A stretch of DNA of 64,000 bases from a virus (Duplodnaviria; Caudoviricetes). A model generated the notes under the pieces. It saw only the letters and a program-made list of their open reading frames with translations. It did not search any database and had not been told where the DNA came from. Below, in pieces: positions 14,766 through 53,893 of the stretch (positions are counted from its first letter, which is position 1; each line of letters begins with the position of its first letter). The translations under genes were made by a program, and so were the position numbers. The DNA lies in the IMG/VR virus record IMGVR_UViG_3300014204_000006, positions 1 to 64,000 of that record. One strand, given 5' to 3'.

Positions 14766-14778
14766 TTAATTATAAAAA

Positions 14779-15039: not shown

Positions 15040-15050
15040 ATAAAAAATAT

Positions 15051-15206: not shown

Positions 15207-15207
15207 T

Positions 15208-15576: not shown

Positions 15577-15619
15577 TAACTATGAATATTATATTTAATT
15601 TATAGTTAATTTATGTTTT

Positions 15620-35417: not shown

Positions 35418-38222
35418 CTATATTTGGAAATCATCCACATCCCCTATAGGCCTATATTCTGGAACATCATATCCCTTTTCCTTTTTAAAGTACATTATGA
35501 GTGATTCTGAGACAATTATGTCTTCCTCCACAGTAGTGAGCTCTGCTGGACTAGGAGAAACTGAAGGAGAAATAGAAGGAGATGGAGAGGGGGATTTAGA
35601 GGGTGATTTAGAAGGGGATTTAGAGGGTGATTTAGAGGGGGATTTGGAAGGGGATTTGGAAGGAGACTTTGAAATTGAAGGAGAAATAGATGGAGATAAG
35701 GAAGGTGAAACTGACGGGCTTAATGAGACGGATGGCGATATTGAAGGAGAAACCGATATCGATGGAGAAATTGAAGGACTCAAAGAAATAGAAGGGGAGG
35801 TTGAAGGTGAAATTGACCTAGATGGTGAAATTGAAGGTGATTTAGATGGTGATATCGAAGGAGAAAGTGAAAAAGATGGTGAGGTTGAAAGTGATTTAGA
35901 CGGTGATATTGAAGAAGATATTGATGGAGAGAATGAACTAGATGGAGATGTAGAAAAAGATAATGATGAAGATGGAGATATTGATGATGATTTTGATGGG
36001 GAATTAGAAACTGAAGGAGAAATTGAAGGTGATTTTGATGGAGATATTGAAGGTGATTCGCTATAAGATTTTGATGGAGAAGTTGATTCACTCGGAGACA
36101 ATGATGGTGATATTGAATAAGAAATTGATATTGAAGGAGAAATTGAAGATGACGGGGATACTGAAGGAGATCCAGACGGTGATATAGACGCTGATGGGGA
36201 GACTGATGGGGATGGGGATATGGATGGAGATAAGGATGGAGATAAGGATGGAGACGCCGAAGCAGAGATACTGCTAGGGAAAGCACCATATCTGATATCA
36301 TCTATGAGAAGGCTTCCCTCAGTAAATGTTATTTCGTTTGATGCTACATAATATATTAAAGAAAAAGCTGTTATAGCGACTGGATCTGGAGAGCCTACCA
36401 CCCCAGTAGGATTATCCCAATTGACATCTATAGTCACCCAATTTCCTACCATTAAAATACTTGGAGACACATCCCAATATTTATATTGTGATGTGCTTAC
36501 TGTCCCAACTTGAACCCTAAAATTTCCTCCAGCGACAAGTTTGTCTTTAGTATCTTGATCTACAACATACAATCTAAACACAATATGCATATCTGATGAG
36601 GATAAATTAATAGTCGGTAATAGATATGAACTTATGCCATTACTTAACCTGTTCGTGAATGTTTTTTTCAGTTGTAAAGAATAGCTCCCTTCATAACTAA
36701 TTGCACTAGTGGGAAATGTTCCTATCTCTGCAAATTGTGCCCAATTAGTAGTTTCCTCACAAGGGTTCCATGACACTGTTGTTGATGGAGAAGGTGAGAC
36801 TGATGGAGATAAAGAAAGAGAAGGTGATGTTGAAGGAGACTTTGATGGAGATAATGATGGAGATAAAGAAAGAGAAGGTGATGTTGAAGGAGACTTTGAT
36901 GGAGATATAGACAGAGATAAAGAGGGGGAGGTCGACTGAGAAGGAGAAATTGATGGAGAAAGTGAGGGAGACTTACTAGGAGAAAATGAATTAGAGGGGG
37001 AAATAGAAGGAGACATAGAAGAAGAAGGAGAGTTTGAAGGAGAGATTGATGGAGATAAAGAAAGAGATGATGAAGGAGAAGTAGAAGGAGATATTGAAGG
37101 ACTAAAAGATACTGATGGGCTAGACGAAAAATTCCATCCGCTGTTATTAATAGTATTTAACGAATGAATTGCATTCCATGTAGCTCCGCCAGTTACGCTT
37201 GAGTTTGAAATATTTAGATATTCGCAATTAACTGTTCCTGATGATTTTGAAAGAGTGAATTGATTAGTTGTATCTATACTATCTAGGGTTATAGGATTCC
37301 CAACTGATCCTATAGCAGTAAAAGTAGCGACTGTTTGAGTAGTGTTTTCAAGAAACCTGACAGATACTCCTTCACTTATTTTTAAATCATTAAAATTATT
37401 AGAACCATAAACAAATATCGAATTTGTGGGTGTTGGTCCATTAATCCAAACGTTATTATATGTATGGCCTCCTAACCCACTAAAATTTATTTCCTCTGAA
37501 TCTATTTTTATAGTAGATGTTTCTGGTACAACCGTTAGTACTTCACCATTGTTTTCATCTGTCTCCCATCCTCCATTGGTGGCCTCCCATGTGCCTGAAC
37601 CCATGACAATAGTCGGAGTATACCCTGTACTAGCGTAGAAGTAGAAATTATTGACAGTTACATTGTGGTCATTAGCATCAAATGTTCCATTTTCGTGGTC
37701 GAACCAGCCAGCCGTCATTAAATTATTTTGCAGTGTCCATGTGGCCGCTCCTCCATCCCAACCAAATCCCAAACCACAATAAAGACTAGCACCAGCAATA
37801 GAGATAGTATATGAACCAGATAAAGATAGAAGAAGGAAGGCCACTTTAACTGCTCCGAAATGACCAAGTGTTAAACCTGCTTCTAAAGAAATATTCCCAT
37901 AAATAGACAATCTTCTATCATTATCTCCCGTATAATCTATTGAGTATGTATGGCCAGAATTGGAAGTAAAATTATTACATGCACCATCAGATAGTGTTAT
38001 CGTCCCTCCACTGCCAAAACCTGAACTAGAATTTATAAAAACATCGTCAGATGAAGTAGGCAAAGATGCTCCACCTGAACCTCCAGATGTTGCTGACCAA
38101 TGGTTAGTATAATCAGACCAATTGCCTGAGCCCCCAACCCAGAATCTGTCTGATGATCCAGAACTAGGACTTATACTAGGACTAACAGAAAAAGAAAAAC
38201 TAGGTGATATTGAATATGCCAT
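35418..38222 (-). CDS. Fibre/spike protein: beta-helix-like domain, carbohydrate-binding-like domain, Ser-Pro repeats
   Basis: RFWVGGSGNWSD..HWSATSGG..GASLPTSSDDVF N-domain; two long SP tracts. Confidence 0.78.
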   Translation of the reverse strand: MAYSISPSFSFSVSPSISPSSGSSDRFWVGGSGNWSDYTNHWSATSGGSGGASLPTSSDDVFINSSSGFGSGGTITLSDGACNNFTSNSGHTYSIDYTGDNDRRLSIYGNISLEAGLTLGHFGAVKVAFLLLSLSGSYTISIAGASLYCGLGFGWDGGAATWTLQNNLMTAGWFDHENGTFDANDHNVTVNNFYFYASTGYTPTIVMGSGTWEATNGGWETDENNGEVLTVVPETSTIKIDSEEINFSGLGGHTYNNVWINGPTPTNSIFVYGSNNFNDLKISEGVSVRFLENTTQTVATFTAIGSVGNPITLDSIDTTNQFTLSKSSGTVNCEYLNISNSSVTGGATWNAIHSLNTINNSGWNFSSSPSVSFSPSISPSTSPSSSLSLSPSISPSNSPSSSMSPSISPSNSFSPSKSPSLSPSISPSQSTSPSLSLSISPSKSPSTSPSLSLSPSLSPSKSPSTSPSLSLSPSVSPSPSTTVSWNPCEETTNWAQFAEIGTFPTSAISYEGSYSLQLKKTFTNRLSNGISSYLLPTINLSSSDMHIVFRLYVVDQDTKDKLVAGGNFRVQVGTVSTSQYKYWDVSPSILMVGNWVTIDVNWDNPTGVVGSPDPVAITAFSLIYYVASNEITFTEGSLLIDDIRYGAFPSSISASASPSLSPSLSPSISPSPSVSPSASISPSGSPSVSPSSSISPSISISYSISPSLSPSESTSPSKSYSESPSISPSKSPSISPSVSNSPSKSSSISPSSSLSFSTSPSSSFSPSISSSISPSKSLSTSPSFSLSPSISPSKSPSISPSRSISPSTSPSISLSPSISPSISVSPSISPSVSLSPSVSPSLSPSISPSISKSPSKSPSKSPSKSPSKSPSKSPSKSPSPSPSISPSVSPSPAELTTVEEDIIVSESLIMYFKKEKGYDVPEYRPIGDVDDFQI

Positions 38223-38228
38223 TTTTTT

Positions 38229-39218
38229 CTATTTCGATGGTGATTTGCTTTTAGGAACGAAAAGATGATCGTTCTCCTTAAGCTTTTTTAAATCTTCATC
38301 AGTCCATCCTTTGACCGGCCAGAATTTTTCTACTAACCAGCTTACGGGATATATCTGATGCTCCCATCTGTTATTAAAAAATAAATCTTTTACTTTCTCT
38401 TTACATTTTGCTACTGCTCTTCCTGATTGATGATATGGGAATCCGAAGTCTCCTCCTTGAGTCCTGAACATATGAGCATACCATGTTTTTTTATTGACTA
38501 ATACTCGTCCCCCGGATAACCATGTTTTGCAGGCTACGGTTATTCCTTGCGATCCCCAGCTACCTAGATTTTCATCATCTATATCCAATTCAAAATACTT
38601 ATCCTTAGTCATCATAAAACATGATCCTTGAAGTGACATTGTTTCTGTTACTTCTCCTTTTCCTTCTGGTCGTCTATTAAACTCTCCAAAATATTGAAAA
38701 TGAGGTTCTGCATCAAAGCAGTATGAATTACTTTGTGGCCTTTCTTTCCCTACCCACATCATCTTTCTTCTAATTTTATCTGTTTTTCCGCATTGTTCAC
38801 ATTTCAATGGAGTAGGACCTTGATATTTCTTCCATCCACAATGATAGCATTTCCAGTCATAACTCCATAGGTTTCTCATAGTTGGAACCATAGTCACATT
38901 ATCCCCTTGTATTTCAAACTCTTCTAACATCTTCCTATCGAACCCTTGGTCAAAAGAACAATGAGCATCGACCTTCATTATATATTTAGCTTTAGAGAGA
39001 TTTACACACATTTTTGTCATAGCCCTCTGGCCAATAGATTCTGGGACATAAATTATATTAACATCTTGATGCTGAATGATGGCCGGGTCGCTCCATTGTC
39101 CATCGAGCCCAACTATTATTTCAGTGTCAGATTCTTTCTTTTCTATAATATCTTGGATAGTGCGGGCTAAGAACATTTCATTTCTTGCCGGTATGCAAAT
39201 CGATAATTTATATTTCAT
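38229..39218 (-). CDS. GT-A glycosyltransferase, polypeptide GalNAc-transferase-like, with Zn-ribbon insert
   Basis: LSICIPARNE, KVDAHC (DxH), QGSCFMM..YFEL..DENLGSWGSQG..CKTWLSGG..YAHMFR; CYHC/CEQC. Confidence 0.82.
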   Translation of the reverse strand: MKYKLSICIPARNEMFLARTIQDIIEKKESDTEIIVGLDGQWSDPAIIQHQDVNIIYVPESIGQRAMTKMCVNLSKAKYIMKVDAHCSFDQGFDRKMLEEFEIQGDNVTMVPTMRNLWSYDWKCYHCGWKKYQGPTPLKCEQCGKTDKIRRKMMWVGKERPQSNSYCFDAEPHFQYFGEFNRRPEGKGEVTETMSLQGSCFMMTKDKYFELDIDDENLGSWGSQGITVACKTWLSGGRVLVNKKTWYAHMFRTQGGDFGFPYHQSGRAVAKCKEKVKDLFFNNRWEHQIYPVSWLVEKFWPVKGWTDEDLKKLKENDHLFVPKSKSPSK

Positions 39219-39448
39219 AATGTTTTTTCCGCTTGCTTTCTAGAAAAAGCTGCATCTTTAATATTTAAAAATCTACCTAAACTTAATTTTTTACCCATTA
39301 CCATCATTTTTTTTTTTGATATTTTAGTGGTAACAGACCTTACGGCATATCCCATATCGTTGATATTCCATTTCCACTGACTTAAATGTAGATAGTCATC
39401 GTCATCTACTAAGGCAAATTTCCCTTTTGTTAAAGGTATTTTTTTCAT
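39215..39448 (-). pseudogene. Internally deleted HNH-AP2 homing endonuclease remnant
   Basis: IPLTKGKFALVDDDDY..LSQWKW..YAVR N-terminus joined to LGRF...DAA..RKQAE AP2 end; HNH core absent. Confidence 0.7.
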
Positions 39449-39460
39449 ATTATTTTATAA

Positions 39461-40150
39461 TTATTTAATATTAAACATGGTTTTTAAATCCCATTCAGTT
39501 ATTATACCTAAGTGCCCTTCTTTCCAACTCTCTTCGCTCGGTTTATGCTTAAATTTATTTATATCACACTTTCTAGGACTTAATGTCCCTTTATGCCGGA
39601 TATCCACGTTAGGACGTTCTGACGACCAGTCTACACAAAAATCGTCCGTTATGCCCCCTCTGCGCCTCCTTTTAGTCCCGGGTTCAAATCCAAATTTTAA
39701 CTGCCACCCGTCTTTTTCTATCCTCTGTATCCTTTTTTTATAGTGCGCTATGGCGAACTCCCTCCCACAGCACATCCCGGATAATGATCTAAGGACGTCA
39801 TAAGTTATCAACCTGTCATGAGGATAATCCCATTTCCATACATTAGTATTATAGTAAAAAGTATTCAAATTTTTAGGGGTAAAATCAAAGTGAGAAGATG
39901 AATACACCACATCATGTTCCAGAAAAAAAACAAAATCAGCACTAGAATTTTCAAGTGCTGTCAATATTTGCTTTAAATAAGTCAATATTCCTGGCTCTAT
40001 ATCCAAAACAATGTTTTTACCAAAAGATATTGGTTTTAATGAGGCAGATATTATTTCTCCTTCAAACCCTTTTTTGATCTGATCCTGACATATTTTCATC
40101 ATGTCAGGATCTAATCTATTGTCCGTATAGTATATTGCGCCAATATTCAT
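39461..40150 (-). CDS. GT-A-like glycosyltransferase (paralogue 1)
   Basis: YYTDN, FFLEHDVVY, HFDFTP..FYYN. Confidence 0.65.
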   Translation of the reverse strand: MNIGAIYYTDNRLDPDMMKICQDQIKKGFEGEIISASLKPISFGKNIVLDIEPGILTYLKQILTALENSSADFVFFLEHDVVYSSSHFDFTPKNLNTFYYNTNVWKWDYPHDRLITYDVLRSLSGMCCGREFAIAHYKKRIQRIEKDGWQLKFGFEPGTKRRRRGGITDDFCVDWSSERPNVDIRHKGTLSPRKCDINKFKHKPSEESWKEGHLGIITEWDLKTMFNIK

Positions 40151-40154
40151 AGCA

Positions 40155-40766
40155 TTATTCCTTTATAAACATCCATGATCTATATTTATCTCTTTTCTCT
40201 CCCTCTTCAGATATTTTTGTACCTAATACAAAAAAGTTCTTTATCCTATATGCTCTCACAAAAGCATCTACGATAAAACGAACATGGCATGTTCCTACAT
40301 TAGAGGTGGAAGTACTAAGAAAGTAATCATGCCCAGCCACAATTCCGCCTTTTTTAACCTTTTTTGTCCATTCCACGAGATCTTCAGCCACATATTTAAA
40401 CCAATGATTACCATCAATATATACAAAATCGAGGCTTTCATCCTCAACCTCAGACAAGGCATCCATAGATGTTTTTCTAATTATAGTGCAATTTGGATAT
40501 GGTTTAAGCCTTTTTTCAGCATCCTTACAAATGAGATCCATTCCTTCTTGGCTCCTGAGATAATCCTTATAATACAACCACGGGTCTATAGCAAAAATTT
40601 TTAATCCTGATTTACAAAATTCTTCTGTGTATTCTCCATGGTCCACACCTATTTCAGCCCCAATTAATCTTCCTGTTTCTTTGAGGAACAAAGGCAAATC
40701 ATTCCTATTACAATCAGGTATTTCTGCGGGGCACCCCTGCAACTTTATTCCATCTTCTAATTTCAT
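40155..40766 (-). CDS. Class I SAM methyltransferase (Methyltransf_24-like)
   Basis: AEIGV, IDPW, DFVYIDGNH, KKGGIVAGHDY. Confidence 0.85.
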   Translation of the reverse strand: MKLEDGIKLQGCPAEIPDCNRNDLPLFLKETGRLIGAEIGVDHGEYTEEFCKSGLKIFAIDPWLYYKDYLRSQEGMDLICKDAEKRLKPYPNCTIIRKTSMDALSEVEDESLDFVYIDGNHWFKYVAEDLVEWTKKVKKGGIVAGHDYFLSTSTSNVGTCHVRFIVDAFVRAYRIKNFFVLGTKISEEGEKRDKYRSWMFIKE

Positions 40767-40786
40767 TTTTTTATATTATTTAATAA

Positions 40787-41557
40787 TTATTTTTCCCATT
40801 TATAGTCAGTCATTAATCTGCATCTCCTTGATCCTATAGCCTTATTTCTTATGTCTTTTAATGATAACACACTCCCATTTAAGAACCTTTTCTCAAGATC
40901 CTTGATAGAAACTCCGAAATTTGAACATTTAAAATCATCCTGGACCTGATTAGCCATATTATTTATAAAAATTGGCTCATCTAAGCAAATCATTAGTGGC
41001 CTATTAGGGCAATTATCATTCAACACTCCTTCTAAAAAATTAGGTGTTTTGAACTCATTGTCCTCTATTATAGGTAAAATGTCTTCAGTTCTGAAAATAT
41101 GGGAAGTTACTGACATAGGGAAACCCCAATTTCTGATATGGTAGTTTCTATTAAATCTATATTGTTCCCATTCCCATTTATTGCCATCTAAGGTCGGTAT
41201 ATTCCCAAAACGATGATTAGGACCTATTCTGAGGCTCAAGCAAAGTATATTCTTGTTTTCATTAAACTCCTTAAATTCCTTACAATTTTCATCAAAATTT
41301 CCTAAAGAGACATCATCATCAACTAAAAAAAGAGTATATTTGATACTCTCATCAATACATTCGATAAGCTGTTCTTTAAACACTTTTTCACGGACAAAAT
41401 TTACTTTTGGATACATTTGGACAATTTTATTATATCCATTTTCAAATCCATGATCTGCCTTATAAATAACCGTAGAACTAATATTCAGTCCTCTGAGCAG
41501 CAATTCTAGTTGACAAGCCCTGTTTTTGCTGAAGATAATTGTTTGTATTTCTGACAT
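40787..41557 (-). CDS. GT-A-like glycosyltransferase
   Basis: IIFSKNRACQL, FLVDDD, LSLRIG, WGFPMS..HIF. Confidence 0.65.
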   Translation of the reverse strand: MSEIQTIIFSKNRACQLELLLRGLNISSTVIYKADHGFENGYNKIVQMYPKVNFVREKVFKEQLIECIDESIKYTLFLVDDDVSLGNFDENCKEFKEFNENKNILCLSLRIGPNHRFGNIPTLDGNKWEWEQYRFNRNYHIRNWGFPMSVTSHIFRTEDILPIIEDNEFKTPNFLEGVLNDNCPNRPLMICLDEPIFINNMANQVQDDFKCSNFGVSIKDLEKRFLNGSVLSLKDIRNKAIGSRRCRLMTDYKWEK

Positions 41558-42141
41558 TATTTTTTTGTTACTGAAATTTGGAAATTAGGGTACATGTCAT
41601 GGACAATATAATCTGTCCGCTTCCAGCAGAATTCAAAGCCATTATTCTCCAATAATTGTTTTAGATACTTAGGAGTATATCCCCACCAATGAGTCCGGCC
41701 CTCTCTAGCGTGATCGCAATAAATAAGCCTTAACGCCCATTCTATCTCTTCATTGGTTTCTGCACTGGTCAATATTTCAGCTTGCTTTTGCCTATCATCT
41801 ACGTCTATTATTAGTTCTCCTCCGGTCTTTAATACCCTATGCCAGTCCTTTAAGGCATCTATGAATTCCTCTTTTTTCATGTGATCGATAAGATTAACGC
41901 ATAATATCCTATCTATAGAATTGTCATCGAATTCAAGCTTCCTGACATCCATAATGATATCAGTGACATTGTTGTCTTTATTCTGCCTAAAAGGGAATTT
42001 ATAATAATTTTCAACAGTAGTTTTATTCCTTTCCACCATAGCTGGGTTATCTTTGGCTAATGAACCAGACAGATCAATGTTTATCCAATTTTCCAGATAA
42101 ACAGTTCCATTTCCCAAGTGTAATCTTTTCATTTTTGACAT
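41557..42141 (-). CDS. Class I SAM methyltransferase
   Basis: LHLGNG..WINID, DVRKLEF, WHRVLKTGG. Confidence 0.82.
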   Translation of the reverse strand: MSKMKRLHLGNGTVYLENWINIDLSGSLAKDNPAMVERNKTTVENYYKFPFRQNKDNNVTDIIMDVRKLEFDDNSIDRILCVNLIDHMKKEEFIDALKDWHRVLKTGGELIIDVDDRQKQAEILTSAETNEEIEWALRLIYCDHAREGRTHWWGYTPKYLKQLLENNGFEFCWKRTDYIVHDMYPNFQISVTKK

Positions 42142-42143
42142 GA

Positions 42144-42776
42144 TTATTTTAAATAAAGTTTTTTAACTTCTTCAGCTGTGCCCCAATAAGGGAGCTCTCT
42201 AGTTACGATCTTCTGATTATATCCAGTTTTAAACCCTATTCCCTCTCTGGTCTTGAAATAAAGAACTGGATTTTTGCCTTCCCAACCATATTCATTCTTC
42301 TCATCAAATATAAACTTGAATGTTTCTGGCTCCCAACTGTTTGGATTTTCCAATATCTTTTCGATGCATTTTATCCAATGCTCCCTCCCACACATCTGAG
42401 CTCCTTCTACCCAATTCTTTTTCCAGAATTTATCCCTGCCATCAAAATGGACATATAAATTGGTATATCTATAAACCTTATCTTTAACTGGGGGTGTAAA
42501 TGTAAAGTACTCTGGAGGGTAAAGAACGTCTGATTCAGCCGCTATGCAAAACTCTGTTTTTGCTTCCTTAAGCCCGATTAGGATCTGCTTGAAAGAATTT
42601 GAATAGCATACCGGTTTTTCTCCAATACAGATATTTTTACCCATATTGATCGGTTTTCTAGTCACACTGATTATAGGGATATCCCTAGCCTGATTCTTAA
42701 TATTATCTATTATCTTCTGCTCAAACTCAGAATTTTCAACATTTGCTGAGTAGTAAATTATGGTCTTATTATTTTC
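42144..42776 (-). CDS. GT-A-like glycosyltransferase (paralogue 2)
   Basis: YYSAN, PIISV, AAESDVLY; ORF track 42144..42818, internal MENNK start approximate. Confidence 0.62.
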   Translation of the reverse strand, partial: ENNKTIIYYSANVENSEFEQKIIDNIKNQARDIPIISVTRKPINMGKNICIGEKPVCYSNSFKQILIGLKEAKTEFCIAAESDVLYPPEYFTFTPPVKDKVYRYTNLYVHFDGRDKFWKKNWVEGAQMCGREHWIKCIEKILENPNSWEPETFKFIFDEKNEYGWEGKNPVLYFKTREGIGFKTGYNQKIVTRELPYWGTAEEVKKLYLK

Positions 42777-43554
42777 CATCACAATTAAAATTACATTTTT
42801 TACAAATAGGGATATCAAAATCTAAATTTTTATGTTTCTCCCTCATCCATTCATAACTATCCCAAATCTCCTTTAAAGTGTTTTTATTGACATCCCCCAA
42901 GATCATCTCTCCATCCCAGTCCATGCAACATGGGACAACTCTCCCATCCCATAAAATGGTCATATGTTGCAATAATGAGTAACAAGGTTTTTTCCCTCCT
43001 ATTTTAGCAATAGAGGATTTTTCTCCTCCTGCCCAATTCAGAAAAGGTCTCATCTTTCTTTTAGTTCCCCACATTTTTTTGAATAACTCTGTTTCATGTT
43101 GATTATCTTCTGTTACTACCATAGATACTTTTACATTGAAAGGTGCTTTTTCTACCAGTTCTTTTATGTTTTTTAAACAAGTGTCATAATCCGGCCTTCT
43201 CATTACTTTATCATAAGTCTCTTTTGTGGCTCCATTGAAACTACAGTTGACATATCTTATATTTTTATATTTTATCAACCTATCCACATCTAAAAATTCT
43301 CCATTAGTATATAATACTGTCTGGACACCCTCTTTTTCCATATAATCAAGCCATTTCCACATCCTAGAAAATACAAATGGCTCTCCATTTAAGAATGGAG
43401 AAAAGAAAGCTGCCTTCATTTCCTTTCCTTCCTTAATTATTTTGTGGAACAATTCATCGCTCATTTCTCCCATAGGACGTGTCATTTTTTCTCTAGGACA
43501 GAATGTGCACCTAGAATTGCAGGAGGTACTGGACTCAAACTGAATTTTTGGCAT
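42769..43554 (-). CDS. Radical SAM / SPASM domain protein
   Basis: CNSRCTFC, NGEP, YTNG, C...WDGRVVPCC..D..LG..IW..CKKC. Confidence 0.9.
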   Translation of the reverse strand: MPKIQFESSTSCNSRCTFCPREKMTRPMGEMSDELFHKIIKEGKEMKAAFFSPFLNGEPFVFSRMWKWLDYMEKEGVQTVLYTNGEFLDVDRLIKYKNIRYVNCSFNGATKETYDKVMRRPDYDTCLKNIKELVEKAPFNVKVSMVVTEDNQHETELFKKMWGTKRKMRPFLNWAGGEKSSIAKIGGKKPCYSLLQHMTILWDGRVVPCCMDWDGEMILGDVNKNTLKEIWDSYEWMREKHKNLDFDIPICKKCNFNCDGK

Positions 43555-43559
43555 ATTTT

Positions 43560-44087
43560 TTATATTTTATGGAATTTAGCATACATTAATGTTCTAGTAG
43601 ATTCTATTTTTCCCTCTAATTTAAACCCTTGTTTTTCCACCATATCTACCAATTCTTGCTCTGTCCAATCCTCGAATTGCAGTTCATCCTTCCATTTCTG
43701 CTTTGTAGGGACCGCTAGGTATAAAAACATAGATATTACCCTTCTAGCCTCTTTTACAGCCTCCTGAGGGAATTCCAGGTGTTCTAGAGTGTCTCCCATG
43801 AAGGCTGACTCAAAATGTTCATTGTCAAATGGAAGGTCGTATGCATCAGCCAATATAACGTTCACACCCTTTTCTCTAGCTATTTTTACCCCATCTAGCT
43901 CATTGTCTATCCCTATTGCCCCTATTTTTGATGTTATGAGCCCATCTCCGGCTCCTATATCTAATACATTCTTTTCCTTTATCCAAGCCACGATTCTATC
44001 TACATGCGTTTTATATCTGGATTTTTCATCATACCATCTCCAATGATAATCACCGTTCCTCCTGTATTTGTTAAAGTCTTTTCCCAT
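43560..44087 (-). CDS. Class I SAM methyltransferase
   Basis: VLDIGAGDG, DAYDLPF, LEHL. Confidence 0.85.
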   Translation of the reverse strand: MGKDFNKYRRNGDYHWRWYDEKSRYKTHVDRIVAWIKEKNVLDIGAGDGLITSKIGAIGIDNELDGVKIAREKGVNVILADAYDLPFDNEHFESAFMGDTLEHLEFPQEAVKEARRVISMFLYLAVPTKQKWKDELQFEDWTEQELVDMVEKQGFKLEGKIESTRTLMYAKFHKI

Positions 44088-44092
44088 AATTT

Positions 44093-44794
44093 TTATCTAA
44101 ATTTTTTAACGAGTTCCTCTGATCTCCCCCAAAATGGTATCTCATATGCTCTCACAAATGACATTCTCTTCTTATGAGTCTGCTGTATAATCTCAGTCCC
44201 ATAATCATGGCTAAACTGGACAATGGGAATAGTAGTCCAAAACTCTACCATCTTTCTCTCTTTTAATTTTAATATCTTATCCGTCCTAGTCTTCCCCAAT
44301 TCTCCGGTATATTCCCCGGTTCCTTTAGGATATTTAGCGAATCTTTCTTCCAATGCCTCTATCATCAATTCTCTAGGGGCTATCAGGGAAAAATTACCCA
44401 CCCTGTGTCGCCATGAATATGTAGGTTCTCCGAAGGTATACAGCGACCACCTGGTCATATTATAAGCAAAGGTATCCATAGGCGGCCTAAAGTCTATGAA
44501 ATGATCCTGGCAATAAAGAACATCATCCTCAGCAATGGCAACAAATGGAGTTTTGGCTAATTTTGCTCCTTTCAGCATTTGCCAATAAATGTTTGAAGAA
44601 CTTTCCGGTTCCGTCTGAATAATATTGTAATGACCAAAGTCCATTGGTTCTTTAGATATAGTTATAATAGGGTAATCCCCCACAGCATTATATAATATCT
44701 TTTTATGATACTCGGCCCACTGTTCAGGAACTTTGTTGACGGTCAAAAATAATACCGTCAAATCTCCTTTTTTACCTCTATTTTCTCTGCCCAT
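44093..44794 (-). CDS. GT-A-like glycosyltransferase (paralogue 3)
   Basis: FLTVN, PIITIS, AIAEDDVLY, HF.DFRP..FAYN. Confidence 0.65.
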   Translation of the reverse strand: MGRENRGKKGDLTVLFLTVNKVPEQWAEYHKKILYNAVGDYPIITISKEPMDFGHYNIIQTEPESSSNIYWQMLKGAKLAKTPFVAIAEDDVLYCQDHFIDFRPPMDTFAYNMTRWSLYTFGEPTYSWRHRVGNFSLIAPRELMIEALEERFAKYPKGTGEYTGELGKTRTDKILKLKERKMVEFWTTIPIVQFSHDYGTEIIQQTHKKRMSFVRAYEIPFWGRSEELVKKFR

Positions 44795-44795
44795 A

Positions 44796-45377
44796 TTATT
44801 TTTTGATTATTGCCCATCCATATCTTGGCAATTCTATAAAATTAATGTTATTTTTCTTGGAAAAGTGATTGACTGCCTTAATAACTCCAAACTCTACTCC
44901 CAACCTATTGGTCCATTTGACATAGTCATCCCCGGCCAGGATACCGCCTGATTTTACTTTAGGATACCAGTCTTTTATGTCCTTTAAACACCCTTCGAAA
45001 GAATGATCACCGTCTATATAGACAAAATCAAAAAAATTATCATCAAACATTTTAACAGCATCAAAAGAATATTCTCTATAAATCTCCACAAACCTAAATT
45101 TCATCATCTCTTCCACAAAATTATTATATTGATCATCCAATTGTTTCTGAGAATAGCCTATATCATTTCGGCAAATACTTTTATCAGCATGCCAAGAATC
45201 TACCGCTACCGCTAAAAAGGGGGAATGTTCTATCATTTTTTTGAAGTTTTCACCTTTTCTAATGCCTATTTCACACACTGATTCACACCTATACTTTTCC
45301 ATAAAAGGTCTCCATATCCTTCTCTTATTTACTATTTTGAGTTCTTTTAAGTCTTGTATAATTTTATTGGATTCCAT
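44796..45377 (-). CDS. Class I SAM methyltransferase (Methyltransf_24-like)
   Basis: CEIGIRKG, VDSW, DFVYIDGDHS, KSGGILAGDDY. Confidence 0.85.
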   Translation of the reverse strand: MESNKIIQDLKELKIVNKRRIWRPFMEKYRCESVCEIGIRKGENFKKMIEHSPFLAVAVDSWHADKSICRNDIGYSQKQLDDQYNNFVEEMMKFRFVEIYREYSFDAVKMFDDNFFDFVYIDGDHSFEGCLKDIKDWYPKVKSGGILAGDDYVKWTNRLGVEFGVIKAVNHFSKKNNINFIELPRYGWAIIKK

Positions 45378-46083
45378 GTAATTTAAATATATTTATTAAT
45401 CTTTTAGACATAATAGGCATCTTAAGATTGCTTTTTCCATACATGAATATATCTAAAATCAGACTCCTATTCGGGTGGAAATGGACTACTTTTATTGGTT
45501 TAATAGCCTTTTCATAATTTGAAACCACATTTCTTTGACCAAAGTTATAAGTGACATTCATTCTAACTATCCTAGTATAGATTTCTTCATCGTTATCCGT
45601 GAGCATCATCATAGCTGTCTCATCTTCAATGTTGTTGAAAATATGAGGTTTAGTATATTCAAATATATCTTTGGCAGTGTCCTTGAAGAAATAACTTCCT
45701 AGACACCATCTTTCTCTCCAACCATAATCCGTCAAGCCCAAGTCCTTGCCCTTTAATATTCCCATTACATCATCAAATACATTCATTTGGAAAGCATCAA
45801 TATCATGATTCCAATACCACTCGTTCTTTTCTATTAAACCGCCATCTATTAAAAATGGGATAATAGATGTCTTTATTGATCTAGGCCTACAGGCGCAAAA
45901 GTGCTCATCTCCCACAACGATAGATTTAACTCCATGATATTCATAATCAAAGTTTGTTACAAGGAGAATATCATATGGTTTCCATCCAAGATCCAGACTG
46001 TTATCTATTTGAACTTTTATCAGTAATCCATACTCTTCGTTGAAGCATTTATCCTTACTGATATACACCATTAGGTTTTTCAT
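45364..46083 (-). CDS. Putative nucleotide-sugar transferase (GT-A, DxD)
   Basis: WNHDIDAF, GSYFF, MNVTYNF, VVHFHP. Confidence 0.55.
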   Translation of the reverse strand: MKNLMVYISKDKCFNEEYGLLIKVQIDNSLDLGWKPYDILLVTNFDYEYHGVKSIVVGDEHFCACRPRSIKTSIIPFLIDGGLIEKNEWYWNHDIDAFQMNVFDDVMGILKGKDLGLTDYGWRERWCLGSYFFKDTAKDIFEYTKPHIFNNIEDETAMMMLTDNDEEIYTRIVRMNVTYNFGQRNVVSNYEKAIKPIKVVHFHPNRSLILDIFMYGKSNLKMPIMSKRLINIFKLHGIQ

Positions 46084-47006
46084 AGGGATATATAATTATT
46101 TTTTAAATATTCCTCAAGACACACTCTCCAATCTCTTATTAAATATGGATTCATATCTTTCAGTTCTTTGTTACTCATTTTTTCAGAATAAGGCCTATTA
46201 GCAAAATATTCTTTTTTAAAATATTTAGAGGAAACCACCTTTAATTTTACCTTCTTGCTCAAATCCAATAATTTCAATATTTCCTTTGCTACATCATATC
46301 TGGAACCACCCCCATCACAAGTGGCATTAACTGTTCCGTAGAAGTTATCATTCAATAAATAATGGATAACCTTAGCCAAATCATAGGTATATGTAGGGGT
46401 ACCCAACTTATCCTTAACTACACATAATTCCTTTGACCCATTAATAATCTGATCTATAATTTTTTTAACAAATTTTTTGTCCTTTTTATGTCCTCCTCCT
46501 ATCATCCACCCGGCTCTTACAATGATATGTTTATGAACATCCATAACGGCTAAATCACCGGCATATTTAGATGAGGCATAAATATTGATAGGATTTGGGT
46601 AATCAAACTCATTATATTTCTCTTTTTTTCCATCAAAAATTCCCGCTGAAGAGATGTAAACAATCGGTATTTTATACTTTTTAGCCATTAGGCACATATT
46701 TTGAGTCCCCATGAAGTTTGTCTCATAAGCCTCTTCTATGTGTTTTTCACAATATTCTAGATCAGTAAGGGCTGCCAAGTGAATTATAACATGAGGTTTT
46801 ATATTTTCGCATGCGTGCTTTACCCATTTTAGGCTCCTCACATCTAAGTATTTAAGCCATTTCTCATTGACATCCATATCCGTAGCATAAACATTATATT
46901 TATCCTTTAATTCATGATAAACAGCTTCTCCCAACATACCTCCGCATCCGGTTATCAATATCCGTGTATTTTTGTTCATATTCATAGTTTTTACCACTTG
47001 GCCCAC
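46080..47006 (-). CDS. rfbD: dTDP-4-dehydrorhamnose reductase-like SDR
   Basis: ILITGCGGMLG, IHLAALT...CE, YISS, YASSK, GTPTYTYDLA, RPYS. Confidence 0.85.
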   Translation of the reverse strand: MGQVVKTMNMNKNTRILITGCGGMLGEAVYHELKDKYNVYATDMDVNEKWLKYLDVRSLKWVKHACENIKPHVIIHLAALTDLEYCEKHIEEAYETNFMGTQNMCLMAKKYKIPIVYISSAGIFDGKKEKYNEFDYPNPINIYASSKYAGDLAVMDVHKHIIVRAGWMIGGGHKKDKKFVKKIIDQIINGSKELCVVKDKLGTPTYTYDLAKVIHYLLNDNFYGTVNATCDGGGSRYDVAKEILKLLDLSKKVKLKVVSSKYFKKEYFANRPYSEKMSNKELKDMNPYLIRDWRVCLEEYLKNNYISL

Positions 47007-47806
47007 TTGGGGAGAAGTTCGTTAGTATAATAATCTTCCCATACTTTAAGGGAATAAGTATATCCTTCGTTGCAATTAGCTCTATTCTCCGGAGATCCTC
47101 CATTATGGGTCCTGGCAAAACTCCTATGTTTATGAGCAAACCAAGTTTTTTTGTTAACCATCAGTTTACCTCCATTTTTCCATGTTTTCATACAAACCTC
47201 TACAGAATCCTGGATTAATGGCCCATAACCCTCTACCTGCAACTCTCCAATGTGTTCGTCCCACCATTTTCTAGGGATTATCCACATGCTCCCTTGCATA
47301 GCCTGACTTTCTAAGATAGGAACATTTTCAAACTTTTTAGCTCTACTATCCCATCTCTGCCCGGAAAATTTTCGCACTCCCGGTTCTACGTTTTGGATCA
47401 CCAATTTTTCGCAATCCACAGGATGGTGCAATTTTGTATCCATCACCTCCCATTTTATTGGGTCCAAGAAAAAACGCCTAGCAGTCATTATCTGGTTAGG
47501 CTCACAATCTTCAGTCAAAATTCGGTCATATCCCTGACCAAACATGCAGTGTTCATCTAACCTCATGAAGAACTCTCCCTTTGAAACAGCGATTCCTGCA
47601 TTTATAGCCCCTCTCATACCCCTATTTTGACCCAGGTGCACTACTTTGACCCTGGGGTCTTGTATTATAGGCTTTTCCGGCCAATACCCATCTAGAACGG
47701 GGATTATTTCTAATTGATCACCTAACTCTGACTTTTCCAACAAATCGTTTATCGTCTTATGCAACATTGGATCTTTGTAACTTGGTATTATTACACTTAA
47801 TTTCAT
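46991..47806 (-). CDS. GT-A glycosyltransferase, polypeptide GalNAc-transferase-like
   Basis: LSVIIPSY, RGMRGAINAG, RLDEHC (DxH), QGSMW, EVCMKTWKNGGKLMV...FAHKHR. Confidence 0.82.
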   Translation of the reverse strand: MKLSVIIPSYKDPMLHKTINDLLEKSELGDQLEIIPVLDGYWPEKPIIQDPRVKVVHLGQNRGMRGAINAGIAVSKGEFFMRLDEHCMFGQGYDRILTEDCEPNQIMTARRFFLDPIKWEVMDTKLHHPVDCEKLVIQNVEPGVRKFSGQRWDSRAKKFENVPILESQAMQGSMWIIPRKWWDEHIGELQVEGYGPLIQDSVEVCMKTWKNGGKLMVNKKTWFAHKHRSFARTHNGGSPENRANCNEGYTYSLKVWEDYYTNELLPKWAKW

Positions 47807-47881: not shown

Positions 47882-48676
47882 TTAGGAAGTCATCCTCCTT
47901 AATGCCTCCTTGAACGTTATTTTTCCCTCTAGGAACTGTTTTGGAAGACTTATAGGGTATTGGACACCTGTTTGTCTATCAATATGCTTCACAAAAATTG
48001 TAGTATCTACCAAAAATGGGAACTCTTTCTTCTGGTATTTAGACCATCCGGCTTTTACAAAAATATTATCGTCTTTAAGACGTTTGCACCAAGCCAGGTC
48101 TGACGTTCCGGACTGATTCATCCATCCCCCAGTTAAAGGATCAATGTAACTCTCTGAAGGATTATCAAACACCCTTCTTGTGACCACTCCGTTCACCATA
48201 TATTCCGGAGACTCTTTCCATAATTCACGGATTATAGATCCGTGGATAAGGGTAAATCCAAAGGGTATCCCGTCAACCCAAACTTTATCGCCTAGTTTCC
48301 AGTCTGCGTAGTATCCCTGCCCCATTCCCCTGTACAAAATCGGTTCAGGGGGCACAGATTTGGTAAAATAAAGCCCGGATACTATGGGGACATTCCCTCT
48401 AATCATGTATTCATTAAGTTTCACTAAGGCGTTAAGAGGGGGCAAATTATCATCTTCCCAACTAAGGAACCACTCCGATTCTTGTTCTACTACAATCTTT
48501 GCAGTTAAATTCTCTGCATCTGCCAATTGATAACCTAGGGGAGCATATGAGTTCATAAACTGGTGCACATCTACCAGGCTAAAATTGCATGGGATTGTTT
48601 GACCGAATCTGGCATTTACCCATTCAAATCTTACATTTCCTAATGTTGGAGTCCCTATTATTAACCTATTTTTCAT
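47882..48676 (-). CDS. GT2-like glycosyltransferase
   Basis: IGTPTLG, FLSWEDD, IVSGLYF, GFTLIH, SDLAWC, VKHI. Confidence 0.75.
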   Translation of the reverse strand: MKNRLIIGTPTLGNVRFEWVNARFGQTIPCNFSLVDVHQFMNSYAPLGYQLADAENLTAKIVVEQESEWFLSWEDDNLPPLNALVKLNEYMIRGNVPIVSGLYFTKSVPPEPILYRGMGQGYYADWKLGDKVWVDGIPFGFTLIHGSIIRELWKESPEYMVNGVVTRRVFDNPSESYIDPLTGGWMNQSGTSDLAWCKRLKDDNIFVKAGWSKYQKKEFPFLVDTTIFVKHIDRQTGVQYPISLPKQFLEGKITFKEALRRMTS

Positions 48677-48927: not shown

Positions 48928-49563
48928 TTATTTTGATAAACATTTATAACTTTTATCAACCTTTCTTTTCTCTAAAGCCAACTCAACAAAACCATTTTTA
49001 TCATAAAAACACCTTAAAATCTTCCAGGGCTTAGGCCTATATATGGTGTAAAGATTGTAATAGTTTCCTGCGCTATCTTTTACCAATGGATCAAAATACG
49101 CCATTGTGACATGAGATATAGGATTAACGTGGGTTGGATCTTGCCAAAAGCCTGTTGAACCAGCATACGGAAATGATGCTATAACCTGGCCACCTGGCTT
49201 TGTAATGCGCCATAATTCGTCCATAAAACGTACAAAACCGCCTAGGAATTCGTGTTCTCCAACATAGTTAGAGATATCCTTTGCGGTTACAATTTTTTTA
49301 TCTAAAAGTAGATTTATAAGCCCTGATAGTCTTGGATCTGATGATGCTGGATTAATGTGCTCAAGTAAGTGCGATGCTACAACAACGTCTGCTACTTCTG
49401 ATGGGATATTCTTCCATGGATATAAAGATAGATTTTGGACCACATCAACTCCATCTAATTTTCTGAAATCTACACCTATCGACCCTGGTCTTTTATTTTC
49501 TCCTGAACCTAAATCGATTGTGATCATTCCTTTCTTTTCCCAAATAGTTGACTTCTTTCTCAT
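48928..49563 (-). CDS. Class I SAM methyltransferase
   Basis: IDLGSG, SHLLEH, ELWRITKPGG, QDPTH. Confidence 0.85.
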   Translation of the reverse strand: MRKKSTIWEKKGMITIDLGSGENKRPGSIGVDFRKLDGVDVVQNLSLYPWKNIPSEVADVVVASHLLEHINPASSDPRLSGLINLLLDKKIVTAKDISNYVGEHEFLGGFVRFMDELWRITKPGGQVIASFPYAGSTGFWQDPTHVNPISHVTMAYFDPLVKDSAGNYYNLYTIYRPKPWKILRCFYDKNGFVELALEKRKVDKSYKCLSK

Positions 49564-49592
49564 ATCTAATTTTTTATTTATTATCTAATTTC

Positions 49593-49621
49593 ATTATGTT
49601 CTTAGAGTTGCTATTTGTCAA
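49593..49621 (-). promoter_or_regulatory. Sigma70-type promoter heading the glycosylation cluster
   Basis: TTGACA-N17-CATAAT; CTTGACAAATAG identical to site at 8172. Confidence 0.6.
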
Positions 49622-49630
49622 GAGTGTATC

Positions 49631-49656
49631 AAAAAACCCCATTTTATTGGGGTTTT
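49631..49656 (-). terminator. Intrinsic terminator
   Basis: AAAACCCCA-loop-TGGGGTTTTTT after the 166-aa gene. Confidence 0.7.
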
Positions 49657-49668
49657 ACAACAATATTT

Positions 49669-50199: not shown

Positions 50200-51120
50200 T
50201 TATCCTAATGAAGGAGAAACCGAAGGAGAAGGGGATGTTGATGGAGAAATAGAAGGTGAAGTAGATGATGATGGAGAAATTGAAGGAGATTTTGATGGAG
50301 AAAGTGAAGGTGATTTGGAAGGGGAAAGTGAAACTGAAGGGGAGACAGAAGGTGAAATTGAGGGTGAAAGTGAAATTGAAGGGGAGACAGAAGGTGATTT
50401 AGACGGTGATAATGAAGGTGATAATGAAGGTGATAATGAAGGTGATTTAGAAACAGAAGGAGAAATTGACGGAGACAATGAAGCTGAAGGGGAAACAGAT
50501 GGTGATGGAGATGGACTAGTAGAAACTCCCACCAAATCAACTGAGGTTGTATCAGATGATTTCGGATTTACAACCAAGGATTGAGTTCCTACAACATTAA
50601 CTGAGCCCATGGTCATCGATGTAGAGGATTTTTCCAAAACCCATAAAGACAAAGGTCCGTATGGTATAGAAGTATCCGAAACAGAATATATTTGAACTCT
50701 ATTAATAAAAAATTTAGCAGTTCCGGCCTCCCATCTTATAGTAAATTCTACATTAATTCCATTCCAATCGCTATTCCATTCTAAATCAGATGATTCTGTC
50801 GTGACTCCTTTATTTGATGTTTGACAATTAAGAGTGTCAGTAATAGAAAATCTGATATAATCAGATCCATCTGAAGAAGAAACGCCAAATAGGCGATTAT
50901 CTCCTGCAGTGGGAGATCCTGGTATAGTAAGATTATAAGTTATTTCTCCTTTAACAAAATCTGAAAAATGGACCATTACTGAAGCTATCCCTGATCCTGT
51001 ATATACGGCAATTCTGCCAAAGGCATTTATAGCGGGAGTACCTGAAATAACTCTCCATGAGTTGGTATCAAGACCTTGTCTGAATGGATCGTACTTAAAA
51101 CTCTTTAATATTTCTGACAT
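50200..51120 (-). CDS. Lectin-like beta-sandwich protein with C-terminal Ser-Pro repeats
   Basis: FTIRWEAGTAKFFIN; ~105-aa SP tail. Confidence 0.7.
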   Translation of the reverse strand: MSEILKSFKYDPFRQGLDTNSWRVISGTPAINAFGRIAVYTGSGIASVMVHFSDFVKGEITYNLTIPGSPTAGDNRLFGVSSSDGSDYIRFSITDTLNCQTSNKGVTTESSDLEWNSDWNGINVEFTIRWEAGTAKFFINRVQIYSVSDTSIPYGPLSLWVLEKSSTSMTMGSVNVVGTQSLVVNPKSSDTTSVDLVGVSTSPSPSPSVSPSASLSPSISPSVSKSPSLSPSLSPSLSPSKSPSVSPSISLSPSISPSVSPSVSLSPSKSPSLSPSKSPSISPSSSTSPSISPSTSPSPSVSPSLG

Positions 51121-52648: not shown

Positions 52649-53893
52649 TTATGCAGTTACACCTTTCAACATTGCGTGCCTTGGAGCTTGTTTTCTCTCC
52701 AAACCAGCTTCTGTGATGTATTGATCAATCTCACCATCTACATCTGGAGCTTGAATATTTGTTTCAAGTTTAGTATCTCTACCGTCCATATATCTGTATC
52801 TGAAACATTCCATATCTAGCAAGTAAGCTGTTCCGGCTAGGTCTTCAACAAACAACGGGTTGTGAACAATATTGATTGTTCCAAAAGCTGTAGTCCACTC
52901 TGAGATTCTTACGCCATAAGTAGTATCTCCAGTTTTTGTGATAACTTGACCTCTAGCAATTTCGTTGATAGCTTGCAAAACTATTCCACCTGCAAACATC
53001 ACTTTTGTGTTGTTTCCATATGTGAAAGCCTCTCTCAAGAAGTTGTTCAAATCAGGAGCAGTAAGAGGACCACCCTGGTTTTGAACGAATGAACTTCCAG
53101 CTGAAAGGAATTCATCAATACCTCCAGTAGCACGTCTAGCATATGTAGAAGTATCTGAATTCTTCTGTCCAAACCAGAAAGCACGTTCGATATCAAGAGC
53201 ATGTTCGGTACCTTTCTTAGCCCTTTGATAAGGAAGATCTTTTCCTCCATATAGAGCGGCAGCCTTTTCAGTGTTGGAAACAGCAATTGTAGTCTTGAAA
53301 ATCTGAGTATAATTGCTTTGACTTGTAGATCGGGTAATATTTTGAGCACGAGCTCCAGTATTTTCAGCGTTAACATTACCTACAATAAACAATCCATCTC
53401 CAGCAGCGATAGCAGCAGCAGCAACATCTCCATAAGAGTTTGTTACAGCAATAGTATCACCATCAGTGATAGCTGTTACCAGCATGTTTTCTCCAGTTCT
53501 TGCATTTCGGACAATATCTCCAATTGTGAAGATATAAGCAGAATTAGAACCGGCTCCTGTTACATTAATAGATCCAGCAGAAGCATTCGCAGCAGCAGCA
53601 GCGCGAGCATATCGGCCTCCGTATACATCTTCAAACCATTTGAACTCTGGATTAGTTGTAACAGCCTTCATAATACTTGATCCGGTCCAAGCTTTTCCAT
53701 CCCACACTTTTCCTACATTAGTAAGCAAAGATACTAGGGGATGCTTGTTTGGTTCAAGCAAGAAAATTTTATCAACTGCATCTACAATCAATCGTCCTTC
53801 AGCTGAAGATACCGAGGTATCTCGAGCTCCTTGTATTCCACCAGTTCCAACTCCATCATGAGTAGGCTCTGTGTAATAAGGGTAATTAGCCAT
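52649..53893 (-). CDS. Major capsid protein (HK97 fold, SU10-like)
   Basis: FKWFED, SNYTQIFKTTIAVSNT, HALDIERAFWFG, RRATGGI, ITEAGLE. Confidence 0.85.
   Translation of the reverse strand: MANYPYYTEPTHDGVGTGGIQGARDTSVSSAEGRLIVDAVDKIFLLEPNKHPLVSLLTNVGKVWDGKAWTGSSIMKAVTTNPEFKWFEDVYGGRYARAAAAANASAGSINVTGAGSNSAYIFTIGDIVRNARTGENMLVTAITDGDTIAVTNSYGDVAAAAIAAGDGLFIVGNVNAENTGARAQNITRSTSQSNYTQIFKTTIAVSNTEKAAALYGGKDLPYQRAKKGTEHALDIERAFWFGQKNSDTSTYARRATGGIDEFLSAGSSFVQNQGGPLTAPDLNNFLREAFTYGNNTKVMFAGGIVLQAINEIARGQVITKTGDTTYGVRISEWTTAFGTINIVHNPLFVEDLAGTAYLLDMECFRYRYMDGRDTKLETNIQAPDVDGEIDQYITEAGLERKQAPRHAMLKGVTA

Follow-up and report, generated by a model that had tools for sequence, protein, structure and literature searches.

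The stretch of DNA considered here (the window) comprises positions 1 to 64,000 of the IMG/VR tailed-phage record IMGVR_UViG_3300014204_000006, and lies within a complete virus record of 101,483 bp that has direct terminal repeats. Between 16 kb and the window end at 64 kb nearly all long open reading frames (ORFs) lie on the minus strand, and they include a tightly packed block of enzyme genes that runs from 47806 down to 38229, about 9.6 kb, inside the virion module between an SU10-type major capsid gene (52649-53893) and a set of fibre-like genes. The first gene of this block, P0002 (46991-47806, minus strand), encodes a 271-residue soluble glycosyltransferase (GT) of GT-A fold that is GT27-like and has the residues D84-x-H86, H225, D200 and E203; the last, P0001 (38229-39218, minus strand), encodes a 329-residue enzyme of the same kind that has D84-x-H86 and H249 and, as an insert, a Cys4 zinc ribbon. 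Immediately downstream of P0001 are genes for virion-module proteins that contain long tracts of the repeat (SPSx)n, and the relationship between these enzymes and these tracts is the subject of this analysis.

Both ORFs are present as originally described and carry the DxH and other motifs listed for them: KVDAHCSF (D84, H86), LQGSCF and SWGSQGITVACKTWLSGGRVLVNKKTWYAHMFR in P0001, and RLDEHCMF, MQGSMW and GYG..VEVCMKTWKNGGKLMVNKKTWFAHKHR in P0002. The two proteins are paralogs (28% identity, E 3e-29), and each has a sole Pfam match, to PF00535 (Glycos_transf_2), in its N-terminal half (E 2.7e-9 and 1.1e-12; profile positions 1-117 and 1-92 of 168), a match that does not discriminate since GT27 catalytic domains share its superfamily. 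Database relatives of P0001 number more than 5,400, the best hits listed being 66-75% identical and several of them labelled Patescibacteria (WWE3, Levybacteria), and P0002 relatives form 782 clusters in a 50%-identity library. A tblastn search with P0001 against 50,697 GenBank phage records returned no match, although the phage's own genome was possibly masked, so that this result is uninformative.

Only T20, D84, H86 and H249 are invariant in an alignment of 88 sequences from both families, and an alignment led by P0002 yields the same four columns (in P0001 numbering); Q197-G198-S199, W233 and G236-G237 are at least 90% conserved in the 88 sequences. The P0002 counterpart of H249 is H225, which is likewise invariant. 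Among 158 P0001-type sequences drawn from the bacterial and viral loci described below, D84, H86, Q197-G198-S199, W221-G222, H249, F251 and R252 never vary. The zinc ribbon cysteines (C124, C127, C140 and C143) are invariant in a 27-sequence alignment of the P0001 family; in the set of 158, C124 and C140 are fixed and C143 is nearly so; at the C127 column, 44 of the 79 bacterial rows are gapped. As judged from these alignments, conservation of the motifs is non-random.

That these enzymes resemble GT27 polypeptide N-acetylgalactosaminyltransferases (GalNAc-Ts) rather than ordinary GT2 enzymes is borne out both by profile searches and by predicted structures. All 16 matches of a single-sequence search of the PDB with P0001 are polypeptide GalNAc-Ts (best E 2.7e-5), centred on the Gal/GalNAc-T motif; the matches of P0002 in the same search are weaker and mixed. 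A family profile of 88 relatives matches GalNAc-Ts with E values between 2e-22 and 1e-17, the matches spanning positions 4-255 of the 286 in the profile, with two isoforms scoring more weakly (E 1e-12 and 5e-12), whereas GT2 structures match at positions 3-100 only, at E 1.7e-11 or worse, and the chondroitin synthase K4CP matches in two stretches (E 3.8e-14). AlphaFold2 models have mean confidence (pLDDT) values of 85.2 for P0001, in which the insert at residues 120-190 is poorly defined, and 96.3 for P0002. With the P0001 model, the best 50 or so PDB matches found by Foldseek are all GalNAc-Ts (E ∼1e-16), and an exhaustive structure search with VIA-align gives Z scores of 26.5 for mouse GalNAc-T1 (268 residues, root-mean-square deviation [rmsd] 2.7) and 24.4 for Toxoplasma GalNAc-T3, followed by the K4 chondroitin polymerase family at 18.6 and ordinary GT2 enzymes at 16-18. 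P0002 behaves in the same way, with Z scores of 24.6 (GalNAc-T1) and 24.0 (Toxoplasma GalNAc-T3) versus 18.9 for the next family. As far as solved structures show, therefore, neither enzyme clusters with the ordinary polysaccharide GT2s.

The similarity extends to the metal site. In a HMMER alignment with GalNAc-T1 (8v9q; residues counted by hand), D84 and H86 fall on D209 and H211 and H249 falls on H344. The Mn2+ ligands of mouse GALNT1 are this DxH pair (D209, H211) together with H344 (PMC4202792). The alignment also places D215 on D310, and sets the HxFR...FP segment of the P0001 family against the HVFRK..YTFP catalytic loop of GalNAc-T1. At the WGGENxE motif of GalNAc-T1, where E319 and E322 are the acidic residues, the correspondence is less complete: the first Glu is replaced by Gln (position 224) throughout the P0001 family, the second aligns with column 227, and P0002 has acidic residues, D200 and E203, at both Glu columns, in a register made uncertain by a short insertion. 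The first predicted beta-strand of P0001 and P0002 starts at residue 3-5 and the 19-residue hydropathy maxima are 0.63 and 0.54, and both proteins are soluble and cytoplasmic, lacking the membrane anchor of GT27 enzymes. From the alignments and models together, we assign P0001 and P0002 to a predicted prokaryotic and phage branch that is related to the eukaryotic GT27 catalytic domain.

The window contains six Ser-Pro tracts in five proteins of the virion module, all encoded on the minus strand, amounting to ∼1,094 residues of which ∼52% are Ser and ∼21% Pro; the x residue of the repeat is mostly I, V, L or K. P0003 (35418-38222), which starts 6 bp past the end of P0001, is a 934-residue fibre-like protein with two tracts, at residues 368-479 and 657-892 (DNA 36786-37121 and 35547-36254), and is the likely acceptor. 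Next to it is a gene (33753-35363) for a 536-residue protein with a tract at residues 47-297 (DNA 34473-35225) and a C-terminal Laminin_G_3/ConA-like domain; this terminal lectin-type domain suggests a stalk-plus-head architecture for the tract-bearing proteins. The remaining three are an 887-residue protein (31072-33735) with a tract at residues 531-823 (DNA 31267-32145), a 192-residue protein (27192-27770) that ends in a 100-residue tract (DNA 27195-27494), and a 306-residue protein (50200-51120) that ends in a tract at residues 202-303 (DNA 50212-50517) and is located upstream of the cluster near the capsid gene. PHROGs assigns no function to the tract-bearing proteins. A complex prediction of a P0001-family enzyme with Mn and a 60-residue Ser-Pro tract scored 0.00, and having been made without controls it speaks neither for nor against binding.

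The association of enzyme and tract extends well beyond this phage. We scanned 80 species-representative Patescibacteria loci (labelled Microgenomates, Parcubacteria and Saccharibacteria) with a frame-aware tract search, and found 68 tracts in 42 loci, every one of them downstream of the GT gene and on the same strand; no tract was found upstream of the GT in the 80 loci, in 657 kb (binomial P 2.6e-16). Where a full 10-kb downstream flank is available, a tract is present in 23 of 32 loci, and 17 of the 19 truncated, tract-bearing loci stop inside the tract or no more than 150 bp away, which is what assemblies broken by repeats would show. Exact protein look-up at two bacterial loci showed a GT orthologue followed by giant SPSx proteins, of 1,539 residues in one and of 440 and 1,130 residues in the other; one of these two loci is flanked by genes for TatA/TatC, UppS and ribosomal protein L33 and is therefore chromosomal. 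Other parts of the cassette travel with the GT as well, with methyltransferases, ExD-bearing GT-A-like paralogs and a second GT that resembles P0002 recurring upstream in 50-75 of the 80 loci. Median identities are 62% for P0001 orthologues, 38% for P0002-like proteins and 26-62% for other cassette genes (33-43% for those widely shared). At the level of whole genomes, 301 evenly sampled Patescibacteria include four with a P0001 orthologue, nine with a tract (defined as a five-unit SPSx DNA pattern) and three with both (Fisher P 7e-5).

Relatives of the GT are also encoded in 314 IMG/VR contigs. In the 80 of these that were examined, 102 of 103 tracts are on the GT strand, and a downstream tract is present in 26 of the 31 loci with full flanks, at a median distance of 1.2 kb; upstream tracts occur in viral contigs too, as they do in this window. 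Taken together, synteny, strand and genome-level co-occurrence strongly support a functional link between the enzymes and the Ser-Pro repeat proteins, and in bacteria and phages alike the GT genes are placed upstream of those for the repeat proteins.

We note that the giant repeat genes pose an annotation problem. At locus L001 the sense frames between 11746 and 16498 encode the 440- and 1,130-residue SPSx proteins, and the public gene call at 12922-16443 is on the wrong strand, describing a 1,173-residue (GETDGE)n antisense frame that lies over the giant SPSx gene. Many contigs break inside such genes, and giant SPSx repeat genes are probably often mis-annotated or split.

Phage and bacterial versions of the enzyme are intermingled. 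In a FastTree reconstruction of 159 sequences the viral/bacterial label changes 13 times, at least seven of these changes being forced by supported branches, versus 53 when labels are shuffled; these placements indicate repeated exchange between phage and host, or else mis-binning. The GT of this phage is 75% identical to a WWE3 bacterial copy. P0001 orthologues have a patchy distribution (4 of 301 species) yet are 57-75% identical across classes and interleaved with phage copies on the tree, and the cassette looks horizontally mobile and is probably carried by phages. Of the 80 bacterial loci, 13 have a gene for TatC no more than 10 kb from the GT; the 80 viral loci have none. In the Levybacteria loci L003-L005 an SPSx gene is followed at ∼14300-15500 by TatA (twice) and TatC. 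The nearby Tat genes fit the export of a folded, already glycosylated fibre in the bacterial version of the system.

The interpretation that we favour, to which we give a probability of about 60%, is that the block is a cytoplasmic cassette that O-glycosylates the (SPSx)n tracts of the five virion proteins by means of GT27-like GT-A enzymes, and then extends and methylates the glycan. P0001 and P0002 would be soluble, cytoplasmic, Mn2+-dependent GT-A glycosyltransferases, and Ser residues of the tracts would be modified in the host cytoplasm, before or during virion assembly. The first sugar-Ser bond would be formed by at least one of the two, more likely an enzyme of the highly conserved P0001 type, after which other cassette enzymes would elongate and methylate a glycan containing deoxyhexose and methylated sugars. 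Put simply, the phage probably sugar-coats its own fibres, so far as its gene content is a guide.

Several observations weigh against this interpretation. The role of the Ser-Pro tract as acceptor is one that we infer wholly from the gene neighbourhood. The loci and genomes counted in the comparisons are not independent of one another phylogenetically, and certain 'bacterial' loci may in fact be prophages, or phage contigs that were binned wrongly: tail-gene hits occur in one, and one GT sequence is identical in the viral and bacterial sets. P0001 and P0002 end after the catalytic domain and lack the ricin-type (QxW)3 lectin domain, their structural alignments spanning the catalytic domain of the targets only, and a Gln in place of the first WGGENxE Glu argues against a donor pocket like that of the GalNAc-Ts. 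Of the two Ser residues in the S-P-S-x repeat, one has Pro at a single position, +1, and the second at -1 and +3, so that neither has Pro at both +1 and +3. Finally, the P0001 of this particular phage has Thr at position 227 (window 38538-38540), where 154 of 158 relatives have Glu, and Lys at position 69, where 153 relatives have Asn. Both Glu residues of WGGENxE matter for the activity of GalNAc-T1, and judging by its sequence this copy of P0001 may be impaired, weakened or altered. E227T and N69K are its only departures among 84 highly conserved columns (at least 95%), and similar departures are scattered among the 79 viral copies, with four at position 227, four at W233 and three at G237, as against none in the 79 bacterial copies; this hints that some phage copies may be under relaxed constraint or have an altered specificity.

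The rest of the cassette bears on which enzyme does what. Three further proteins, of 229 residues (39461-40150), 224 residues (42144-42818) and 233 residues (44093-44794), all on the minus strand, are divergent GT-A-like paralogs that share an E-x-D motif. Their GT-A label comes from a structure search of the ESM Atlas, in which they match Glycos_transf_2 clusters with query-normalised TM scores of 0.64-0.89; a profile of the paralogs finds no credible match among PDB sequences, and its similarity to the GT27-like profile is weak (hhalign, 36% probability, N-terminal 90 residues only). The original prediction had cast both P0001 and P0002 as initiating enzymes, a claim that finds no support here, given these three additional GT-A-like proteins and the inability of sequence to separate initiators from extenders. 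The most serious alternative is that the tracts are indeed glycosylated, but one GT27-like enzyme alone initiates while the other, together with the three ExD proteins, extends, or that P0001 has been weakened and P0002 does the work. The presence of five GT-A-type proteins in one cassette speaks for such a division of labour, as does the much greater conservation of P0001 (62%) than of P0002-like proteins (38%), which suggests different roles; the E227T and N69K changes in this phage's P0001, set beside a P0002 that appears to be acidic at both Glu positions, count in favour as well. On the other side, both enzymes have a full metal site and match the GalNAc-T structures equally well, and with sequence silent as to order of action we regard this arrangement as an unlikely, if far from negligible, one.

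Nor is the acceptor preference proposed at the outset, that the sequon favoured by GalNAc-Ts is matched by the repeat, well supported, even though its arithmetic is correct: the tracts contain 219 SPS units, and 128 of their Ser/Thr residues are flanked by Pro at -1 as well as +3. GalNAc-Ts have as their consensus sequon T/S-P-x-P, in which Pro occupies +1 and +3; the pocket that receives the +3 Pro is conserved, and GalNAc-T2 favours Pro at -1 (bioRxiv 10.1101/2020.06.25.171371). Neither Ser of SPSx yields T/S-P-x-P, and Ser greatly outnumbers Thr in the tracts. At 15-19% identity to the GalNAc-Ts, moreover, the specificity of those enzymes is not transferable to P0001 and P0002. F251 and R252 of the P0001 family align with F361 and R362, which in GalNAc-T2 lie in the +1 and -1 pockets (bioRxiv 10.1101/2020.06.25.171371), and because these residues are kept the Ser that precedes Pro is at least as good a candidate as the Ser originally chosen. 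GalNAc should likewise not be assumed to be the donor, because the cassette encodes an RmlD-like protein, Levybacteria loci have heptose-pathway genes, and the P0001 family has Gln in place of a GalNAc-contacting Glu.

A second alternative is that the product is not a glycoprotein at all but a cell-wall or surface polysaccharide or a glycolipid, which might alter the host surface, with the Ser-Pro genes being mere neighbours within surface-gene clusters. GT-A enzymes that match PF00535 mostly make polysaccharides, the next-best structural matches after the GalNAc-Ts are K4CP, heparosan synthase and teichoic-acid GTs, and some bacterial loci contain heptose and UDP-glucose dehydrogenase pathway genes and are near UppS and PAP2. 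We nonetheless consider this quite improbable. As judged by Pfam and hydropathy the cassette lacks a membrane-spanning enzyme, flippase, polymerase or priming phosphoglycosyltransferase; among the cluster ORFs there is no Pfam match to a flippase, polymerase, priming transferase, GT-B enzyme (Glycos_transf_1) or SecA/SecY, and no cluster enzyme has a hydrophobic segment (19-residue hydropathy maximum at most 1.06). The GT27 structures score 6-8 Z units above the polysaccharide GTs, the tracts in bacteria are strictly downstream on the same strand and co-occur with the gene across genomes, and the phage cassette is embedded in the virion module beside tract-bearing structural proteins.

It is less probable still that the target is a host Ser-Pro fibre or another host protein, modified during infection, for instance as a block to superinfection. 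Homologous cassettes and giant Ser-Pro proteins do appear to be encoded by hosts of this phage lineage, and the close match of the phage GT to a WWE3 copy would suit such a role. The phage, however, has its own ∼1,094 tract residues in five structural-module proteins, one of them 6 bp past P0001, which as acceptors provide the more economical explanation, and the system is present in only ∼1% of sampled Patescibacteria genomes. Hypermodification of phage DNA, for which there are precedents in phage glycosyltransferases that act on DNA (PMC12619734), is scarcely credible here, as no thymidylate-synthase-like hydroxymethylase is encoded in the complete genome, the cassette is placed in the virion module apart from replication genes, and the same cassette is chromosomal in bacteria beside Ser-Pro proteins.

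Returning to glycosylation of the tracts by the cassette, the closest known system is that of the GT27 polypeptide GalNAc-Ts, represented by mouse GalNAc-T1 (8v9q/1xhb), human GalNAc-T2 (4d0t) and Toxoplasma GalNAc-T3 (8uhv). The phage enzymes share with these a GT-A catalytic domain that aligns over its full length (Z 24-26.5, 246-269 residues, rmsd 2.4-3.2), the DxH and distal His metal ligands, the conserved LLRTV-motif Thr, the Gal/GalNAc-T motif framework W-G...W..GG...H.FR and, for the P0001 family, the FR...FP catalytic-loop signature, and they presumably share a Ser/Pro-rich repeat polypeptide as acceptor. They differ in their low identity (15-19%), in having no lectin domain and no membrane anchor or stem, and in being cytoplasmic as opposed to Golgi-lumenal; P0001 differs further in its Cys4 zinc ribbon insert, with Gln at the first WGGENxE Glu and Thr at the second. 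The presumed acceptor tracts are Ser-rich rather than Thr-rich and are without the T/S-P-x-P sequon, and with an RmlD-like reductase and methyltransferases as neighbours, UDP-GalNAc is unlikely to be a settled choice of donor. Ordinary GT2 enzymes (SpsA, TarS/TarP, PglI-like, K4CP) have in common with P0001 and P0002 the GT-A fold and the PF00535 N-terminal nucleotide-binding half, but they have DxD and not DxH, their Z scores are 16-19 compared with 24-26.5 for GT27, and it is GT27 that the C-terminal half of the phage enzymes matches.

Virion glycosylation by phage-encoded enzymes has been described in mycobacteriophages, in which, as far as the summary of Freeman et al. 2023 (Cell Host Microbe 31:1216) in PMC12619734 goes, glycans have been found on the C-terminal ends of capsid and tail-tube subunits, and phage-encoded GTs are linked to these glycans, with modification taking place inside the host cell. 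The present GT genes, lying inside the structural module beside tract-bearing virion proteins, have the layout expected of virion glycosylation. In contrast to the mycobacteriophages, whose glycans have been seen, this phage is uncultivated and known from a metagenome record alone, long (SPSx)n tracts of fibre-like proteins are the presumed acceptors, and the cassette is much larger, with key enzymes that are GT27-like. A further parallel (PMC5207161, PMC6291802) is with the serine-rich repeat proteins (SRRPs) of Gram-positive bacteria, such as Fap1 and GspB, giant Ser-rich proteins encoded beside dedicated soluble cytoplasmic GTs that act before export. Neither the cassette nor its bacterial relatives follow the SRRP pattern closely, since the cassette has no Pfam match to GT-B (Glycos_transf_1), its repeats are S-P-S-x, and Tat rather than accessory Sec genes are found near the bacterial relatives (13 of 80 loci). 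SRRP glycosylation is initiated by the GT-B pair GtfA/GtfB, and export proceeds through SecA2/SecY2.

Dedicated protein O-glycosylation systems and phage virion glycosylation are thus already known in kind, and protein O-glycosylation initiated by GT27 enzymes is regarded as eukaryotic and Golgi-based. In the literature we found no description of GT27-like enzymes in phages or Patescibacteria or of their pairing with Ser-Pro repeat proteins. A broader picture, which is tentative and which we would put at somewhat short of even odds, is that these are lectin-less cytoplasmic Ser-O-glycosyltransferases acting on (SPSx)n 'mucin-like' stalks, that they constitute a large prokaryotic and phage sister group of GT27, and that phages of the ultra-small Patescibacteria build brushes of sugar-coated, methylated fibres and move the cassette back and forth between their own genomes and those of their hosts. 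If the sister-group relationship is correct, the origin of the animal mucin-type machinery becomes testable. A soluble, lectin-less version of GT27 would also offer a simple system in which to study how the catalytic domain reads a peptide, with very regular Ser-Pro acceptors; virion glycosylation, so far shown for mycobacteriophages, would be extended, if this is true, to a large group of uncultivated phages; and attention would be drawn to the chemistry of surface fibres in Patescibacteria, a group whose means of attachment are little understood. The cassette is moreover a possible toolbox for making defined O-glycosylated and methylated repeat polymers in bacteria.

The remaining genes of the block are likewise all on the minus strand. 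An RmlD-like NAD(P)-dependent sugar-nucleotide reductase of the dTDP-4-dehydrorhamnose reductase family (46080-47006) follows P0002, and Pfam identifies four S-adenosylmethionine (SAM) methyltransferases, at 40155-40766 (Methyltransf_24), 41557-42141 (Methyltransf_11/25), 43560-44087 (Methyltransf_11) and 44796-45377 (Methyltransf_24). There is also an accessory gene for a 261-residue radical SAM protein with a SPASM domain (42769-43554), whose counterparts are confined to two bacterial and ten viral loci, out of 80 in each set. Peptide modification is the usual role of SPASM enzymes, and the target of this one might be the Ser-Pro tract or a sugar. Two cluster proteins, of 256 residues (40787-41557) and 239 residues (45364-46083), have no Pfam match at E values up to 5, the same being true of an ORF at 47882-48676; the 239-residue protein is conserved in 24 of the 80 bacterial loci, where it is encoded upstream of the GT.

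The bracketing of the enzyme block by P0001 and P0002 agrees with the original prediction, whereas the further proposal that a late promoter drives the block does not find support in the promoter content of the region. A scan for sigma-70 promoters between 35 and 53 kb found 64 sites versus 68.9 expected from shuffled sequence, which is no enrichment, and terminator-like sites in the same interval are fewer than expected. At 49564-49668 on the minus strand, a hairpin and T-run (AAAACCCCAATAAAATGGGGTTTTTT) directly precedes TTGACA-17-CATAAT (49621-49593). No clearer pairing of a terminator with a promoter is present near the cluster. At ∼49.6 kb, it is upstream of gene 48928-49563 rather than at P0002, which together with two further genes lies downstream of it.

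The apparent gap of 242 bp upstream of P0001 is filled by a 77-codon ORF with an A11 run (39218-39448, minus strand; MKKIPLTKGKFALVDDDDY...GYAVR...). It has no Pfam match at E values up to 5, and we take it to resemble the N-terminus of AP2/HNH-type homing endonucleases; it may be the remnant of a mobile endonuclease inserted beside the GT. Lastly, the window includes an array of eight tRNAs that opens with two tRNA-Ser genes, with anticodons TGA and GCT (1105-1278, plus strand). The Ser codons of the tracts are overwhelmingly TCA and TCT, and a phage-encoded tRNA may serve the phage's own ∼570 tract serines.

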